A stretch of 64,000 bases of DNA from Escherichia coli (GTDB lineage Bacteria > Pseudomonadota > Gammaproteobacteria > Enterobacterales > Enterobacteriaceae), in the NCBI RefSeq assembly GCF_003334405.1, contig NZ_QOWM01000004.1; one strand, written 5' to 3'. The translations under genes were made by a program, and so were the position numbers. Numbering within the stretch: position 1 is the first letter of the stretch; each line of letters opens with the position of its first letter. The notes under the pieces were generated by a model. The model had not been told where the DNA came from, made no database searches, and was given only the letters and a program-made list of their open reading frames with translations. Of this stretch, positions 17,299 through 25,298 are shown in pieces.

Positions 17299-19309
17299 TT
17301 TTCGGATACCAGGCTGTTGAAAACTCAGGACGAATAAGGTCTATTTCAGGTTGGTTATGCAGAAAATTGTCGGGATAATAACCATAGTTTTTCACTCCAT
17401 TCAGTTGTAATAGGCTCATCCAGTGAGCGAGTTGTTGCGAAGAAATAGCCTGATGCTGACCATTTTTCTGCCAGTTTTGTGCCTGTAATTCTAAAATAGA
17501 TTTGTCTTTAGCCTGAGGGATGTTTTTAATTTGATTGGTCAATTGTATTAACCATTGGTCAGCCGATTTTTCTGCGACACCTTCCAGATAAGGCATAGCC
17601 ATAATAGCGGTCCAGTCATAGCTTTTTAGGAAATCAGCATAATTCTGTGCAAACCAGGCTTCACTTTCAGGTTGTATTACCGGAAGTGCAAAAATATTTC
17701 GTGCAGTTTTAATATGTGGACCGCGAATGGCTTTTACGCGCGCACTAAGTTCTAAAGTGAAGTCAGTTAACGCACGACTTTTAAAGCGGGCCCACTGTTT
17801 AAATTGCTCCGGGTTTTGTCGAATTTCGCTCAGACTCCCGCTAAAGCCTGCTTGCTGATAAGCCGTGATAGCCGGTGCACTGGCATCTTCATAATCTGAA
17901 AGCAAAGCATCATCGTGGAACAATATGCCATCAAAAGCAGCATGTCCGGCAAGATCTTCATATAACATGCCAACTTGTGCTCTGACTCTGTCATCGAAAG
18001 GAGAGAGACGGTGATATTGTTCAGGATGAATTTGTGCTTTTTTCTCCCCTGTTGGTAAGTATTTTACTCGCGTTAATGTGGGATCTAAATCCCAGCTTAA
18101 TACCGGCATCCACGCATAGATGTTTACACCTGAGCGGGTACGTAATTGCCAGGCAACCCGACTAAAAATATCTGCTTTCATTGGTAGCAAACGATTTGGA
18201 AACCAGACCTCTTTGACCAGCCCATCACCATCGGGATCAGCAAATGCCTGCAAATACACGGTTGATATTTGCATATCTTTCACCCGCTGAATTAGCACAT
18301 CAATATTGCGATCCATTTGCTGGAGGTTTTCGTCATAAACGTAATCAAGATCGATATGCATTATCCGTTGTGGTGATTTTTCCTGTACGGTAATAATTTG
18401 CTGGGCAAACTCTTTTAATGAGGGATTATTGGCGATTAATACCCGCGGAATGGAATCCAATTGCGACGCATTTGCCAAACCTGATTCAAGGGTGAAGAAC
18501 ATGTCATAACCGATTTTTTTTAATTCCTCTATCGCTATGCCATTCGCTTCGCCATAAGGCCAAACAAAAACGTGTGGATTTACCTCAACCTTTGTACGCA
18601 GGTATTCCGTCATTTTTACAGCATCCAGACGAATTCTTTCCCGGTATTCTGCTGCGGTTTCATACCGTGCGTGGTCAGTAAAATATGCACGATTTACATA
18701 TACAGGCAATAAGCTGCCGGTGGCATTAGCCTGAATACCGTAGTGAGAATTCCATGTATGAGAAGCGAGCTCAACGAGCCGGGAACGCGCAACTTCTCGC
18801 ACTTGTTGCCACGTGGCAAAATATTCTCGATCGACCAACTCATCGCCAAATTTTACTTGTTTATCCGCTGGCGTATCGACCCAACTGCCGACGGGGGCCC
18901 ATACAGCAGGCCACTGGAAGGCCTGAAGAATTGGGAAGACGCGGGTATAAAAACTCTGGTAGCCGTCATCAAAAGTCAGCACTACAGCTTTTTCCGGTAG
19001 CGGTTTTCCTCCTCGATGTGCTTCACGAATTTGAGCAATACTGACCGGTTGATAACCGTTCTCGCGCAGCCAGGCAAATTGTTCACGCAGTGCTGATGTC
19101 CGCACTGACATAAAACGCTGGTCGGCAGCTTCGTCTTCAACGTTATGCCATGAAATCGCTACAAAACCATTATGCGGCCACGGTTGCTCGGCGAGTAAAG
19201 ATTCGCGATCCTGTGGCGGTATAAATGATGTTCTTGACTGGCTAATGCACGCGGTGAGCATAATTATACTCACCAGCATCAGGAGATATTTATTTCCATT
19301 ACGTAACAT
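17291..19309 (-). CDS. pgaB: PgaB, PGA N-deacetylase / export lipoprotein
   Basis: ORF track 672 aa with lipoprotein signal (LTAC); overlaps pgaC start by 8 nt. Confidence 0.95.
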
Positions 19310-19317
19310 ATTTATCC

Positions 19318-21741
19318 TTAAAATCTGAATGTCATATCGAATTCAACGTATAAGTTGTGTTCTCTGTCACCGTCATAAGGTCGTTTTTCCCAGCGTAGCG
19401 TTGCGCCAGCATCAATCACGTCATTCCAACTAATGCGTTGCCCGTAGCCGAGTTGGGTGACGACATCCGTGCCATAATGTTTTTGCCAGGAGGCACCAAC
19501 ACCTGCGCTGAATATTTGCTCCCAGCTATTTTCATAGCTTCGCCATAACAAATGGCTTGCCTCAAATGCCGGAACAATATCGAACGTTTTTATAGGGTTG
19601 TAGTATGGGGTATCGTGTTCTGTATTTTGTTCGTAATACAGACTGGGTAGGAAATCGACAATCAAATATGGTGAAGACCAGATGCGTTCCTGACCCTCAA
19701 GTGAGACTTCATGACGCTGGTTACTGTCGGAAAAATCAGTGAAAGCCCAGGAGACACCGTACTTACGCCGCTCATTTTGATACCAGCGAACATAAGCCTG
19801 AGCACTGTTGCCTGTAACACCATTTTTCATTGCCCGTAATGGAACGCGGTGAGAGAGGCGTTCCAGTTGCGAACCAATACGCCAGTTATCATTAAAATCA
19901 TACCAGCCAGACAGGCGCGCGCCGGGTTTATGCTCATGATTGAAAACGCGTTCAGCGTACTCTGCCTCGAGCCAGATATTACGTGACCGCCACTCAACAC
20001 CCGCAAGCCAGTCGCGAACAATCCCTTTTCCTTCGCTAAATTGTCCATCGGCATAACCGAATCCAGCAAAACCGCGCCAGTTATCCTTCAGCGGTGGTGA
20101 ATAAACGATGGTGGTTAAGTCGACATCATGTTTACCACTATCCGGGCCTTCGGCATCAATTCCTGTTGAGCCAGCGATACGAAGCTCTGCAAGATTATGT
20201 ACATCAACCGCACGTTTTAATCGTACAACGCCGGGATCTTGCGGTTCACGTTCGACAACATCGTGCGTTAAGACAGCTGCCTGCTGCCATTCTTGTAACG
20301 TTAATGCTGTCCAGGCTTGTTCAACCTCCAGATTAATATTACGTGGCTCGATCACTTCTGCTTTTTTTAATTCATTTTCTGCTGCACGAGGCCAACCGCG
20401 GGCTTGTAACACACTCGCGTAATCAATGCGCAGTCCCTGATTTCCTGGTGCGTTATAAGCAAGCTCTCTGGCTGTCATTTCAGCCTGAGGAAGATCATTA
20501 CTATATTTTGCTACGGTTGAGAGAAACGAATGCCCCTGTAACCAGGTATCATTCGGGATGCTCGTAGGCGTGCCCATTAACCGAAGGAAAGGCGGCGAAG
20601 TATTAATGGTATGTTGGGTGACAGTTAGCGCGCCCGGATAATTTTCACTCTCCAGGTGGCTGTAAAAGAGATCCGCAAGTTCTTCATCGGATAAATCCGG
20701 GGCAATGGTCTCCTTGTGATAAAAGAGCTCGGTCATTATTGACTGTGCTTTTTTCGGCTGATGATCTTTGAGATAAGCCGATGCAACCCAATATTGCCCC
20801 CAGGGCGGAATAATTTGCCCCGTCTTTTTTAATCGCTGATAGTGAGAAATAACGTCTTTATAACGATCGCGAGTTAATAACGCGCCAAGATGATCAACCT
20901 GAATACGCTGGTACTGGGCAGTGCGGTCTGGGTTATCGTGCCACAGAATTTCTAATGCAGCGTATTGGGCGAGGGCGCGATCGGCAATGGCATAACGTTC
21001 ACTTTCACTGCGCGTAGGCATAAACGACAGTCTGACCAGTTCGGCATGAATATCAGCGCGAATATCTGGCGTTAAATTGGCATCGTCAATCGCGGCAGCA
21101 AGTTGATTATTACGTAATGCCTGCACGTATTCTGTGGGATATTGTTGCGTAGATGCATTTTCAGGTAATGACTCTGTCATCGCCCGTAATTCATCCTGAT
21201 GACGCCCCGCCAGTTTATAGATATAGGCTTCTGCGAGTAAATTGGCTTTGTCCGGTGCTCCAGAGTTAAGCTGCTTAAGTTTAACCAGCGCAGTATCATA
21301 GTGACCAGCATCTGCCAGGGTTAAAATTTGTCCCCGTTGATAATCCTTATTTTGCGGCTCCAGAGAGAGCGCCTTTTGCCACAGTGTAAGCGAGTTTTGC
21401 CATTGTTGCAGGTTACGATAAGCGACGGCGACAGCTGCATAACCACGCGCTGGTAATTGCTGATGACGGTAGCGGTTGTAAACGGTAATAACCTGTTTAT
21501 CTTGCCCGGCCCATAAGGCAATCTGTAACCAGTCAGCAATTTGGTTATTGCTGAGTGCTGATTTTAGTGCAAACCATGACAAAGCTGGCTGAGTATTACC
21601 CTTGCGAGCTTCAATAATCAATGCATCATAGGCGTTATTAACAGCACTCTTCGCCGCGGGACTCGCTGCTAAAAATGCGGCAGTAAGAAGTTTCAAAGCC
21701 CATTTGGTTTTCGGGCACCTTTTTCTGCTACTTGAATACAT
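19318..21741 (-). CDS. pgaA: PgaA, outer-membrane PGA export porin (TPR + beta-barrel)
   Basis: ORF track 807 aa MYSSSRKRCPKTKWALKLLTAAFLAASPAAKS. Confidence 0.95.
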   Translation of the reverse strand: MYSSSRKRCPKTKWALKLLTAAFLAASPAAKSAVNNAYDALIIEARKGNTQPALSWFALKSALSNNQIADWLQIALWAGQDKQVITVYNRYRHQQLPARGYAAVAVAYRNLQQWQNSLTLWQKALSLEPQNKDYQRGQILTLADAGHYDTALVKLKQLNSGAPDKANLLAEAYIYKLAGRHQDELRAMTESLPENASTQQYPTEYVQALRNNQLAAAIDDANLTPDIRADIHAELVRLSFMPTRSESERYAIADRALAQYAALEILWHDNPDRTAQYQRIQVDHLGALLTRDRYKDVISHYQRLKKTGQIIPPWGQYWVASAYLKDHQPKKAQSIMTELFYHKETIAPDLSDEELADLFYSHLESENYPGALTVTQHTINTSPPFLRLMGTPTSIPNDTWLQGHSFLSTVAKYSNDLPQAEMTARELAYNAPGNQGLRIDYASVLQARGWPRAAENELKKAEVIEPRNINLEVEQAWTALTLQEWQQAAVLTHDVVEREPQDPGVVRLKRAVDVHNLAELRIAGSTGIDAEGPDSGKHDVDLTTIVYSPPLKDNWRGFAGFGYADGQFSEGKGIVRDWLAGVEWRSRNIWLEAEYAERVFNHEHKPGARLSGWYDFNDNWRIGSQLERLSHRVPLRAMKNGVTGNSAQAYVRWYQNERRKYGVSWAFTDFSDSNQRHEVSLEGQERIWSSPYLIVDFLPSLYYEQNTEHDTPYYNPIKTFDIVPAFEASHLLWRSYENSWEQIFSAGVGASWQKHYGTDVVTQLGYGQRISWNDVIDAGATLRWEKRPYDGDREHNLYVEFDMTFRF

Positions 21742-21980
21742 CCTGTATTACTCCATGTATTGCCAAAATCTCTCTCTGTATCTAATTACAGGTAACTGAA
21801 AAGAAAGATATTTTTGCACCTCATAATCCGTTATTAAACGCGGAAGAGAGACGTGAATTGTTGATGATGAGAAGAAGAAATGATGAGCAGAGTGTCCATA
21901 TAAAATCCTTTTCTCGCCCGAAAATCCATTCCAATGATGAGGATCTTCAGGAATACGGCATAAATCCCAATGCCTTTTTC
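21742..21980 (-). promoter_or_regulatory. pgaA 5' leader region (site of CsrA-mediated translational repression)
   Basis: Long untranslated region upstream of pgaA with multiple GGA motifs on the transcribed strand; extent approximate. Confidence 0.5.
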
Positions 21981-22327
21981 AAAATAAATTAGGATTAAAA
22001 TAATTAAATCAGTAAATTCCGATGCATGATTTCGGATTTTTCGAAAGTCCTGATGAAAGGCTGCGCTACGGCACTCACGGATTTAATTGTTATTCCTAAT
22101 GTATCTATGAATTAATGTTTTATAAGGATTTTCTATAACCATTTATAAGTATTTTCAAGCCTGGCTTGTTGCAAACAATGTATAAAGCACTTAGGCAATA
22201 ATAATTACATTCAGCAACTATCATCATCGGTATTGTTTGTGGGCGGAATTTCATATTGACAACAGTACAGTTCTTATATCTATTAATAATAGAAAGGGAT
22301 CTACAACCTACAGATTGGTGTAGCTTT

Positions 22328-23686
22328 ATGGAAAAAGACTATTTGAGAATTAGTAGTACTGTATTAGTGAGCTTATTGTTTGGGCTTGCTTTGGTTTTGG
22401 TGAATAGTTGGTTTAATCAGCCAGGCGTTGAGGAAGTTGTTCCACGATCAACCTATCTGATGGTAATGATTGCTTTATTTTTTATCGATACTGTTGCATT
22501 TATTTTTATGCAGTTGTATTTCATTTATGACCGTAGGCAATTTTCAAACTGTGTACTTAGTTTGGCTTTTCTGAGTTGTTTGATTTACTTTGTTATAACC
22601 GTCATTATCATTCAGCAAATTATTGAGGAGCGTTTGACAAGCAGTGTTGTCCAAAATGACATTGCAATCTATTATTTGTTTCGTCAGATGAGTTTGTGCA
22701 TATTAATATTTCTGGCATTGGTGAATAAAGTTAGTGAAAACACAAAACAGCGCAATTTATTTTCCAAAAAAATGACTTTGTGCATAAGTTTGTTTTTTGT
22801 TTTTGGGGGGCCGATAGTTGCTCACATACTTTCTAGTCATTATGAGAGCTACAATTTACACATTGCCGAGTTAACCAATGAAAATGGTCAGGTGGTTTGG
22901 AAAGCCTCATATGTTACCATAATGATTTTCATGTGGTTAACCTTGCTTTCGGTTAATCTATACTTTAATGGTTTACGCTATGATATCTGGAATGGAGTGA
23001 CGGTGATTGCTTTTTGTGCCGTACTGTACAATATCTCTCTGTTATTTATGAGCAGGTATAGCGTGTCCACTTGGTATATTAGTCGCACTATTGAAGTAGT
23101 CAGTAAGTTAACCGTTATGGTAATATTTATGTGCCATATATTCAGTGCGCTACGAGTAACAAAGAACATTGCACATCGCGATCCCTTAACCAATATATTT
23201 AACAGAAATTATTTTTTTAATGAACTGACAGTTCAATCAGCATCAGCCCAAAAAACGCCTTATTGCGTCATGATTATGGATATCGACCACTTCAAAAAAG
23301 TCAACGACACCTGGGGGCATCCGGTTGGCGATCAGGTGATAAAAACAGTGGTGAATATCATTGGGAAAAGCATACGACCAGATGACCTTTTAGCGCGCGT
23401 CGGCGGCGAAGAGTTTGGCGTCTTGCTGACGGACATCGATACTGAACGTGCGAAAGCTTTAGCGGAAAGGATTCGGGAAAATGTTGAGCGTTTAACTGGC
23501 GATAATCCTGAATACGCTATACCACAAAAAGTGACGATTAGTATTGGCGCTGTTGTGACTCAGGAAAATGCGTTAAACCCAAATGAGATCTATCGACTGG
23601 CTGATAACGCACTTTACGAGGCGAAAGAGACCGGGCGTAATAAGGTGGTTGTGAGGGATGTGGTGAATTTTTGTGAGTCACCATAA
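22328..23686 (+). CDS. dgcT: DgcT (YcdT), membrane-anchored GGDEF diguanylate cyclase
   Basis: ORF track 22256..23686; start trimmed to MEKDYLRISSTVLV (452 aa); C-terminal GGEEF motif (RVGGEEFGVLL). Confidence 0.93.
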   Translation: MEKDYLRISSTVLVSLLFGLALVLVNSWFNQPGVEEVVPRSTYLMVMIALFFIDTVAFIFMQLYFIYDRRQFSNCVLSLAFLSCLIYFVITVIIIQQIIEERLTSSVVQNDIAIYYLFRQMSLCILIFLALVNKVSENTKQRNLFSKKMTLCISLFFVFGGPIVAHILSSHYESYNLHIAELTNENGQVVWKASYVTIMIFMWLTLLSVNLYFNGLRYDIWNGVTVIAFCAVLYNISLLFMSRYSVSTWYISRTIEVVSKLTVMVIFMCHIFSALRVTKNIAHRDPLTNIFNRNYFFNELTVQSASAQKTPYCVMIMDIDHFKKVNDTWGHPVGDQVIKTVVNIIGKSIRPDDLLARVGGEEFGVLLTDIDTERAKALAERIRENVERLTGDNPEYAIPQKVTISIGAVVTQENALNPNEIYRLADNALYEAKETGRNKVVVRDVVNFCESP

Positions 23687-23726
23687 AGCGGCATTTTGAT
23701 CCTACCCACGTAATATGGACACAGGC

Positions 23727-24593
23727 CTAAGCGAGGTTCTTGTTTTCAAATTGTTCCGGACTGAGGCCGCCACACCAACTGTGCCGCCGCCACCGATTGT
23801 AATCACATTCGATATAATTAAACACCGTTGCCCGCATTATTTCCCGGCTGATAAAGTGTTCTCCATGGATACATTCCACTTTCAGCGAATGAAAGAAGCT
23901 TTCCACGCAGGCATTATCGTAGCAGCAACCTTTTGCGCTCATACTTCCACGCAGATTATGCCGCTTCAGTTGCGCCTGATAATCTGCTGAACAGTACTGG
24001 CCTCCACGGTCCGTGTGAACGATAACGTTCCGGGGCCTCTTACGCCGCCACAGCGCCATCTGCAGGGCATCGCAGGCCAGTTGCGCCGTCATGCGTGGCG
24101 ACATTGACCAGCCAATAACGGCACGTGACCACAGGTCAATGACCACTGCCAGATACAGCCAGCCTTCATCTGTACGTAAGTACGTGATGTCTCCTGCCCA
24201 CTTCTGGTTCGGGCCACTGGCGTAAAAATCCTGCTCCAACAGATTTTCTGACACAGGCAGGCCGTGTGCGCGGTAGCTGACCGGGCTGAACTTCCGGGAG
24301 GCCTTTGCCCTCAGTCCCTGACGGCGCAGGCTTGCCGCCACGGTTTTTACGTTAAAGGGGTAACCCTGAGCACGCAGTTCATCCGTCAGGCGTGGGGCAC
24401 CGTAACGCTGTTTTGACCGGGTAAAAGCCGCGAGGACAACGCTGTCGCAGTGTTGGCGGAACTGCTGACGCGTGCTTATCCTTGTCCGCCGCTGACACCA
24501 CGTATACCAGCCGCTGCGGGCCACCCGGAGCACGCGGCACATTGCTTTGATGCTGAACTCAGCCTGATGTTTTTCAATAAAGACATACTTCAT
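23727..24593 (-). CDS. insF: IS3 OrfB (InsF) transposase, DDE catalytic domain
   Basis: ORF track 288 aa [32 protein letters not shown]; overlaps orfA (ATGA). Confidence 0.95.
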
Positions 24594-24889
24594 TTCAGGC
24601 GCTTCGCGAAGTATGTCGCGGCCTTTTGGAGGATAGCCAGCTCTTCATCCCGTTCTGCCAGCTGGCGTTTGAGACGTGCAATCTCGGTAGACATCTCCAG
24701 TTCACGTTCAGAAGACGTCTGCTGATTTTGCTGTTTACTGCGCCAGTTGTAGAGTTGTGATTCATACAGGCTGAGTTCACGGGCTGCGGCAGTAACACCG
24801 ATGCGTTCAGCAAGCTTCAGGGCTTCACTGCGAAATTCAGGCGAATGCTGTTTACGGGGTTTTTTACTGGTTGATACTGTTTTTGTCAT
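24590..24889 (-). CDS. insE: IS3 OrfA (InsE), HTH DNA-binding transposase subunit
   Basis: ORF track 24590..24898 (GTG-extended); ATG gives [31 protein letters not shown] (99 aa). Confidence 0.93.
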
Positions 24890-24954
24890 GTGAGTCACCT
24901 CTGACTGAGAGTTTACTCACTTAGCCGCGTGTCCACTATTGCTGGGTAAGATCA

Positions 24955-25298
24955 GTGCCTGGCACACGCGTTTGATGGAAGACGGCGTTCAGGCAATGCG
25001 CGATTATCTTGCCGGACTGGATATCGCTTCGCCAGAGCATCAGGTTCTGATGAACGTAACAGCAAAAAGCGAGGTCGCTCCGTCAATTATCAAAGAAAAT
25101 CTCTCATTACACTTAACTCATACGGTGAAATGGACTGAATCTCTCGATACATTTCTGAATATGCCAACCCCGGTAGCTTTCCTTGAAATAAGTAATAAGC
25201 CCTATTTGGGGAATATGTTAAATGATTTTGCTGGCGTGGATCAGCAACGAGTTATGCATTGTCGTAAAGCATTTAGTGATGCAAAGGTATTCAAATGA
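24955..25298 (+). pseudogene. ymdE: Truncated C-terminal fragment of an acyltransferase (malonyl-CoA:ACP transacylase-like) gene abutting IS3
   Basis: ORF track 24939..25298 begins inside the IS3 inverted repeat; no plausible N-terminal domain; translation resembles the C-terminal lobe of FabD-like acyltransferases. Confidence 0.6.

Follow-up and report, generated by a model that had tools for sequence, protein, structure and literature searches.

The 586 bp between pgaA and dgcT are almost certainly the known, thoroughly characterised divergent control region of pgaABCD and dgcT, working as published. The pgaABCD genes give rise to the biofilm adhesin poly-N-acetylglucosamine (PGA), and dgcT encodes a diguanylate cyclase. 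The pgaA locus is the textbook case of CsrA acting at several layers, and Rho termination induced by a protein has its prototype here; its confirmation in itself adds nothing new. The useful outcome is a negative one, namely that the freely evolving 185 bp in the middle of the region are probably without a hidden gene. In addition, three leads could refine the published model: a 5′-terminal hairpin with GGA in its loop, an AUG at leader position +77 that outlives the CsrA motif overlapping it, and the recurrent insertion of IS1. Here we report the identity, coordinates, composition and conservation pattern of the region and its fit to the published structure, and take the action of CsrA, Rho and NhaR from the literature.

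Identity and composition of the intergenic region

The gap between pgaA and dgcT (formerly ycdT) measures exactly 586 bp and occupies positions 21742-22327 of the window, by which we mean the whole 64,000-nucleotide stretch of Escherichia coli DNA analysed. It is identical in sequence to E. coli K-12 MG1655 NC_000913.3 1092290-1092875, the NC_000913.3 coordinate being the window position plus 1070548. The first-pass annotation, made from the DNA letters, had assigned the region to pgaA and dgcT, and this assignment was correct, the RefSeq names and exact coordinates agreeing with it. Its description of the DNA as extremely AT-rich was likewise borne out: GC content is 0.340 compared with 0.499 for the whole window, within the lowest 1.5% among 586-bp windows. 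The low-GC tract (0.30-0.38) extends from 21700 to about 23250 and includes the first ~900 bp of dgcT, making a total of ~1.5 kb with an AT content far above the genome mean. The homopolymer runs mentioned in the same description do exist, as three T5 runs (Table 1), but mononucleotide shuffles give 3.0 ± 1.7 such runs, and hence this detail carries no information. The statement that no open reading frame of 60 aa or more lies here holds for frames wholly within the gap, where there are four of 31-44 aa. Beyond these, the dgcT frame stays open in the 5′ direction up to a TTG at 22256, and the frame of this upstream extension is not conserved in divergent alleles.

Table 1. Features of the pgaA-dgcT region. 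Leader positions count from the pgaA transcription start (+1); identities are for K-12 versus other Escherichia lineages.
Feature	Window position	Strand	Leader position or landmarks	Basis or remark	Identity
pgaA	19318..21741	(-)	A of AUG = 21741	807-aa ORF; name from RefSeq annotation	0.80 (both lineages)
pgaA ribosome-binding region	21741..21754	(-)	GGA +222 on Shine-Dalgarno, +233 overlapping AUG		
pgaABCD 5′ untranslated leader	21742..21975	(-)	+1 = 21975		0.66-0.85
Stable RNA 3′ end	21819	(-)	+157	Adams 2021 Term-seq supplement	
uORF, 21 codons	21834..21899	(-)	AUG +77 = 21897-21899; stop 21834-21836		
rut region, C>G bubble	21846..21926	(-)	+50..+130	published (PMC4052769)	
Anti-terminator hairpin HP3	21869..21915	(-)	+61..+107	published; MFE and centroid folds	
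CsrA GGA in HP3 left arm	21906-21908	(-)	+68		
CsrA GGA in HP3 left arm	21895-21897	(-)	+79		
HP1 stem-loop	21957..21974	(-)	+2..+19; GGA +9..+11 in loop	predicted fold, conservation	
Citrobacter island		(-)	+3..+18	HP1	
Citrobacter island		(-)	+62..+82	first CsrA site + AUG	
Citrobacter island		(-)	+225..+244	pgaA RBS	
pgaA promoter + upstream activator region	21976..22060	(-)			0.82-0.86
Variable AT-rich spacer	22061..22245	none		GC ~0.30; 185 bp	0.35-0.55
dgcT promoter-like block + leader	22246..22327	(+)		conservation	0.73-0.80
TTGACA	22256-61	(+)			
TTATATCTATTAAT	22274-87	(+)			
GGA	22297-99	(+)			
SD-like GGTG	22317-20	(+)			
dgcT	ATG at 22328	(+)		name and start from RefSeq annotation	0.80 (YPE3); 0.90 (L061)
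T5 run	21811-15				
T5 run	21975-79				
T5 run	22037-41				
IS1	21686-94			inside pgaA	
IS1	21848		+128	joined to a deletion from dgcT to near serX	
IS1	21890-97		+79..+86		
IS1	21948-58		+18..+28		
IS1	21985-93		-9..-17		
IS1	about 22005-35		about -29..-59		
IS1	22013-21		-37..-45		
IS1	22095-105		-119..-129		

The pgaA leader and Rho-dependent attenuation

When +1 is placed at 21975, the sequence reproduces the published 234-nt leader length and the layout of hairpin, CsrA sites and rut without adjustment. In the account given by PMC4052769, the pgaA 5′ untranslated region is 234 nt long and carries six CsrA sites (Wang 2005), which are backed by footprint and boundary analysis and by genetic tests. 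Nucleotides +61..+107 form an imperfect hairpin with the two upstream-most CsrA sites in its left arm and half of rut in its right arm, and CsrA induces Rho termination in the distal leader (Figueroa-Bossi 2014, PMC4052769). The long pgaA leader with CsrA-target GGA motifs that the first-pass annotation had proposed is therefore real, the published length, sites and hairpin mapping exactly onto the sequence. According to the literature, NhaR bound just upstream activates the pgaA promoter (+1 ~21975), from which the leader is transcribed leftward. When CsrA is low, the +61..+107 hairpin (HP3) hides the C-rich rut and transcription continues into pgaA; when CsrA is abundant, it binds the left arm at GGA +68 and +79 and opens the hairpin, Rho terminates in the distal leader, and a trimmed RNA of ~157 nt is left.

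Several features of the leader and of published data sets match a Rho-dependent attenuator. The right arm of HP3 is the 5′ half of rut, and the 54 nt from +82 to +135 are rich in C and poor in G (C 20, G 3, T 21, A 10). The Term-seq data of Adams 2021, which cover three growth conditions, contain one 3′ end in the entire intergenic region, at MG1655 1092367(-), seen in LB at OD600 2.0 only and represented by 58,095 reads; this 3′ end, at +157, is that of the attenuated pgaA leader RNA. Also reported there is a Rho region sensitive to bicyclomycin, at 1092292(-), window position 21744 (score 4.85, p 1.5e-14). With regard to structure, the helices of HP3 are 85-90% paired across the sequences compared and show both-sided changes at three pairs (GC to AU in three sequences, AU to UA in two and CG to UA in four), albeit from few independent lineages. 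For the whole leader structure there are 16 both-sided cells compared with 4.4 in shuffles, again drawn from few independent lineages. The lower stem of HP3 is retained by RNAalifold, and the folding energy of the 157-nt leader is near chance (z = -0.9). We also observe that the T5 run at 21811-15, which is A5 at +161..+165 on the pgaA strand and lies just past the +157 end, varies from A5 to ~A9 among E. coli alleles.

The leader strand contains eight GGA motifs, at +9, +44, +49, +68, +79, +147, +222 and +233, a number that is not an enrichment over dinucleotide shuffles (5.5 ± 1.5, P ~0.1), although in practice an excess of this kind does not define a CsrA-regulated leader. The first-pass annotation had proposed a count of those in hairpin loops: in co-transcriptional folds +9 alone lies in a loop. 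A second hairpin contains +44 and +49 in its 3′ arm; +222 and +233 are largely unpaired, and the full-length fold places them in a loop of 13 nt. A spacing of 11 nt separates +68 from +79 and likewise +222 from +233, and the range over which a CsrA dimer is described as bridging paired sites is 10-63 nt. GGA +222 and +233 are the published CsrA sites for translational repression, and both are retained in all lineages compared, Citrobacter included.

Compared with the published pgaA attenuator (Wang 2005; Figueroa-Bossi 2014), the locus is the same and the leader length, hairpin, rut and CsrA sites at the ribosome-binding region coincide. For K-12 there is no difference; what is added here is the knowledge of which GGA motifs persist beyond E. 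coli proper. As in the classical leaders of glgC and cstA, whose translation CsrA represses, GGA motifs of pgaA overlap the Shine-Dalgarno sequence and start codon and form pairs within 10-63 nt. The pgaA leader differs in its far greater length, its larger number of sites and an additional layer of transcription termination.

Conservation across lineages

The relatives compared comprised E. coli alleles that are 94-100% identical, a divergent allele (strain YPE3, locus L003), the loci L009 and L061, and two Citrobacter loci. The divergent allele occurs in 81 complete genomes labelled E. coli, with 72% identity in the intergenic DNA and 80% in both genes, and L009 is the GTDB species representative of the same clade; loci of this type are L003, L009, L035 and L050. 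L061, from a metagenome, represents a third lineage in which PgaA is 79% and DgcT 88% identical and the intergenic region is 502 bp long, 84 bp shorter. At the nucleotide level its pgaA is 79% and its dgcT 90% identical to K-12, a mosaic pattern that suggests recombination within the locus.

The two Citrobacter loci have pgaA with no dgcT neighbour. Their leaders are 42-43% identical to that of K-12 overall, and within them three islands reach at least 75% (Table 1), two of which are documented CsrA sites. GGA +9, GGA +68 and the GGA motifs on Shine-Dalgarno and AUG persist to Citrobacter, and GGA +79 and +147 are limited to E. coli proper.

The two promoter regions

The pgaA promoter region contains a -10-like TATTTT at 21981-21986 and conserved islands at -32..-47 and -57..-73, which are common to Citrobacter. 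Two further observations concern this side of the region. The sole sigma-70-like match, TTTTCA-17-AATAAT at 21976-22004 (+), stands back-to-back with the pgaA core promoter and would be aimed at dgcT from ~320 bp upstream. A 23-nt imperfect inverted repeat (21999-22021/22069-91) brackets the upstream activator region, and a 15-nt direct repeat, TTTATAAG(G/T)ATTTTC, occurs in the spacer at 22119-33/22142-56 with 23 bp spacing; both repeats are short two-copy matches, partly kept in other alleles.

On the dgcT side, the motifs of the promoter-like block listed in Table 1, that is, TTGACA, TTATATCTATTAAT, the 22297-99 GGA and the ATG together with its SD-like GGTG or GGAG, are invariant across the three Escherichia lineages. 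The distance from TTGACA to the best -10-like hexamers, read from the sequence, is non-canonical. We infer that the dgcT promoter lies within this conserved block, probably ~40-70 bp upstream of the ATG. The earlier placement of the dgcT promoter in the region thus gains an invariant promoter-like block in the dgcT-proximal 80 bp, an assignment that is made from conservation. The block would drive weak rightward transcription of dgcT, whose expression is described in the literature as very weak, and the short dgcT leader would be a target of CsrA and a predicted target of OmrB. In the literature the dgcT/ycdT mRNA is listed as a direct CsrA target, and pairing of OmrB with it has been predicted at -12..+2. 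An additional GGA (22330-32) overlaps the dgcT start codon just beyond the block.

Recurrent insertion of IS1 near the start of pgaA

In the best database matches, IS1 occupies no fewer than eight independent positions around the start of pgaA, its leader and its promoter, in both orientations (Table 1; loci L002, L004 and L080-L085). In EAEC strain 55989, IS1 in the pgaA promoter region creates outward hybrid promoters (Richter 2014). Like that strain, several genomes carry IS1 between pgaA and dgcT; unlike its single site, the insertion points here number at least eight and run from within the pgaA codons to -129. Those downstream of the native start, at +18..+28, +79..+86 and +128, would cut the leader and not only the promoter. 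In natural isolates, recurrent insertion of this kind would release pga from its control by NhaR and CsrA. We regard the multiple independent sites as a modest addition to Richter 2014.

Possible silencing of the AT-rich tract

It is worth considering whether a putative coat of H-NS or StpA over the AT-rich tract, which takes in the gap and the 5′ two-thirds of dgcT, is a main reason for the weak expression of dgcT and perhaps of pgaA. The first-pass annotation had named the region a candidate site for nucleoid-protein binding, which would fit its composition. We consider this a real possibility, to which we would nonetheless give somewhat less than an even chance. It accords with the GC content of 0.30-0.38 over ~1.5 kb and with the very weak dgcT expression noted above. 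A published bicyclomycin-sensitive Rho region inside dgcT (MG1655 1093357(+), window position 22809) fits as well, such regions being typical of poorly translated or silenced genes, and so does the repeated insertion of IS1, an element that prefers AT-rich targets. The genomic-SELEX peaks of three unrelated factors at ~22909, which resemble non-specific DNA affinity, point the same way. Even so, silencing by H-NS or StpA would add to the CsrA- and Rho-based explanation of the locus and would not replace it.

The SELEX peaks themselves, of RcdA, FlhDC and SrsR, are listed under "pgaA/ycdT" but map inside dgcT, outside the intergenic region. All three fall together within the AT-rich 5′ half of that gene, and they look more like a general attraction to AT-rich DNA than like specific control.

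A conserved hairpin at the 5′ end of the leader

The first nucleotides of the leader form a predicted stem-loop, HP1, that is recovered by RNAalifold without guidance and whose loop GGA is invariant in the 20 distinct leaders compared, those of Citrobacter included. Its four core pairs are standard in each of these 20, where a single change, from C-G to U-G, occurs. As fifth pair, 14 sequences have the outer G2-C19 and 6 have the inner A7-U14, such that every lineage keeps 5 bp. In the fold model the G, G and A at +9..+11 have predicted probabilities of being unpaired of 0.69, 0.96 and 0.93, and in local folds this is the sole upstream leader GGA in a hairpin loop. HP1 thus has the shape of a high-affinity CsrA hairpin, in which a conserved GGA lies in the loop of a short stem. 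The two upstream-most published CsrA sites lie within +61..+81 in the account of PMC4052769, and by that account HP1 was therefore not scored as a CsrA site in vitro. Its GGA is 59 nt from GGA +68, a distance inside the range that a CsrA dimer bridges.

These features raise the idea that HP1 is a seventh, so far unlisted, candidate CsrA contact, which could nucleate CsrA on the nascent leader or couple CsrA binding to 5′-end-dependent decay. We think this unlikely, although worth stating. If it were true, a corollary would be that the abundant 157-nt leader fragment, with six GGA, acts as a local CsrA decoy that feeds back on the pga switch. Such an RNA would be similar to the CsrA decoy of the Salmonella fim leader (Sterzenbach 2013), in the terms in which PMC4052769 cites it, with which the pgaA RNA shares abundance and multiple GGA motifs; this is a resemblance only, and we do not claim titration of CsrA. 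The simplest alternative for HP1 is a stem-loop that protects the 5′ end, but this would not explain the invariant GGA of the loop.

An HP1-like element is absent from more distant pgaA homologues (38-50% identity). A metagenome scan for the pattern of HP1 plus the first CsrA site gave 67 matches, and all true ones were Escherichia; the remaining matches, which lacked pgaA, were rejected as chance. We view the conservation of HP1 as a minor new point beyond the published model.

The conserved AUG at +77

The AUG at +77 opens a frame of 21 codons and sits 6 nt after AAGGA. It is conceivable that this upstream frame is translated and that translation keeps Rho off rut, with CsrA blocking it through AAGGA/AUGGA in the manner of a classical leader-peptide attenuator, but we find this unlikely. 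In its favour, AAGGA-N6-AUG makes a good ribosome-binding site, all 20 of 20 leaders have the AUG although the GGA that overlaps it (+79) is lost outside E. coli proper, and the frame spans the rut region. The length of the frame is 20-21 codons in four lineages (three of Escherichia and one of Citrobacter), and L061 has a 3-nt deletion that preserves the frame. Against this, mutation of the AUG was without effect on pgaA expression (Figueroa-Bossi 2014, PMC4052769), and the variable columns are distributed 7:7:6 over the three codon positions, so that the codon-position bias of a coding sequence is absent. Stops are moreover rare in such a G-poor stretch, where the other two frames, taken from +77 in K-12, run on for 25 and 49 codons. 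In one Citrobacter the frame is just 10 codons long, and a frameshift affects it in one E. coli variant. The conserved bases are also shared with the CsrA site and the hairpin arm.

The central spacer

Between the two promoter regions, the spacer has an identity of 35-55% between Escherichia lineages and varies in length. Its low identity and the 84 bp missing in one lineage argue against a hidden gene for a small RNA or a small protein. The first-pass annotation had named the region a candidate site for additional small RNAs, and this is not supported by the data: Rfam has no match, shuffles contain more promoter-like sites, the spacer is unconserved, and the single Term-seq 3′ end belongs to pgaA. 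Specifically, Rfam was searched over 19000-25000 with a permissive E-value and matched nothing in the intergenic region. The promoter scan found one site compared with 4.4 expected from shuffles, and in the combined promoter and terminator scan the one terminator-like signal was the complement of HP1. In the Term-seq data of Adams 2021 (three conditions) there is no 3′ end inside 22061-22245 and none on the + strand in 1092100-1092899. Nor is there an intact small protein across alleles, as both of the 44-aa frames, 22120-22254(-) and 21858-21992(+), have their start lost or are frameshifted or truncated in other E. coli alleles; for 22120-22254(-) it is the start or the frame that is lost.

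An extra independent small RNA or small protein, encoded in the spacer or antisense to the leader, is thus very improbable: the region is long for E. coli intergenic DNA and offers a terminator-like hairpin with T5 on the + strand (21957-21979), the + strand promoter-like site described above and the four short frames, but the hairpin is the complement of the 5′ hairpin of pgaA and against the reading stand the shuffles, Term-seq ends, Rfam search and allele comparisons just given. We infer instead that the ~185 bp between the promoter regions are an unconstrained AT-rich spacer that contains no gene. Since this DNA evolves freely, the 185 bp left unassigned by earlier work probably hold none that has been overlooked.

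Distribution of the locus

Of 5426 complete E. coli genomes, 4306 contain the intergenic DNA and ~1100 have no match to the pgaA-dgcT region at all; seven matches in the same search are on plasmids. Outside the lineages compared above, a metagenomic relative (L086/L087, 1501-4437) encodes a 478-aa protein similar to the N-terminus of PgaA (48% identity). After it, in the same orientation, comes a MASE4-GGDEF gene resembling dgcT, and an AraC-type regulator precedes it. The linkage of PGA export with a DgcT-type cyclase thus recurs there in another arrangement.
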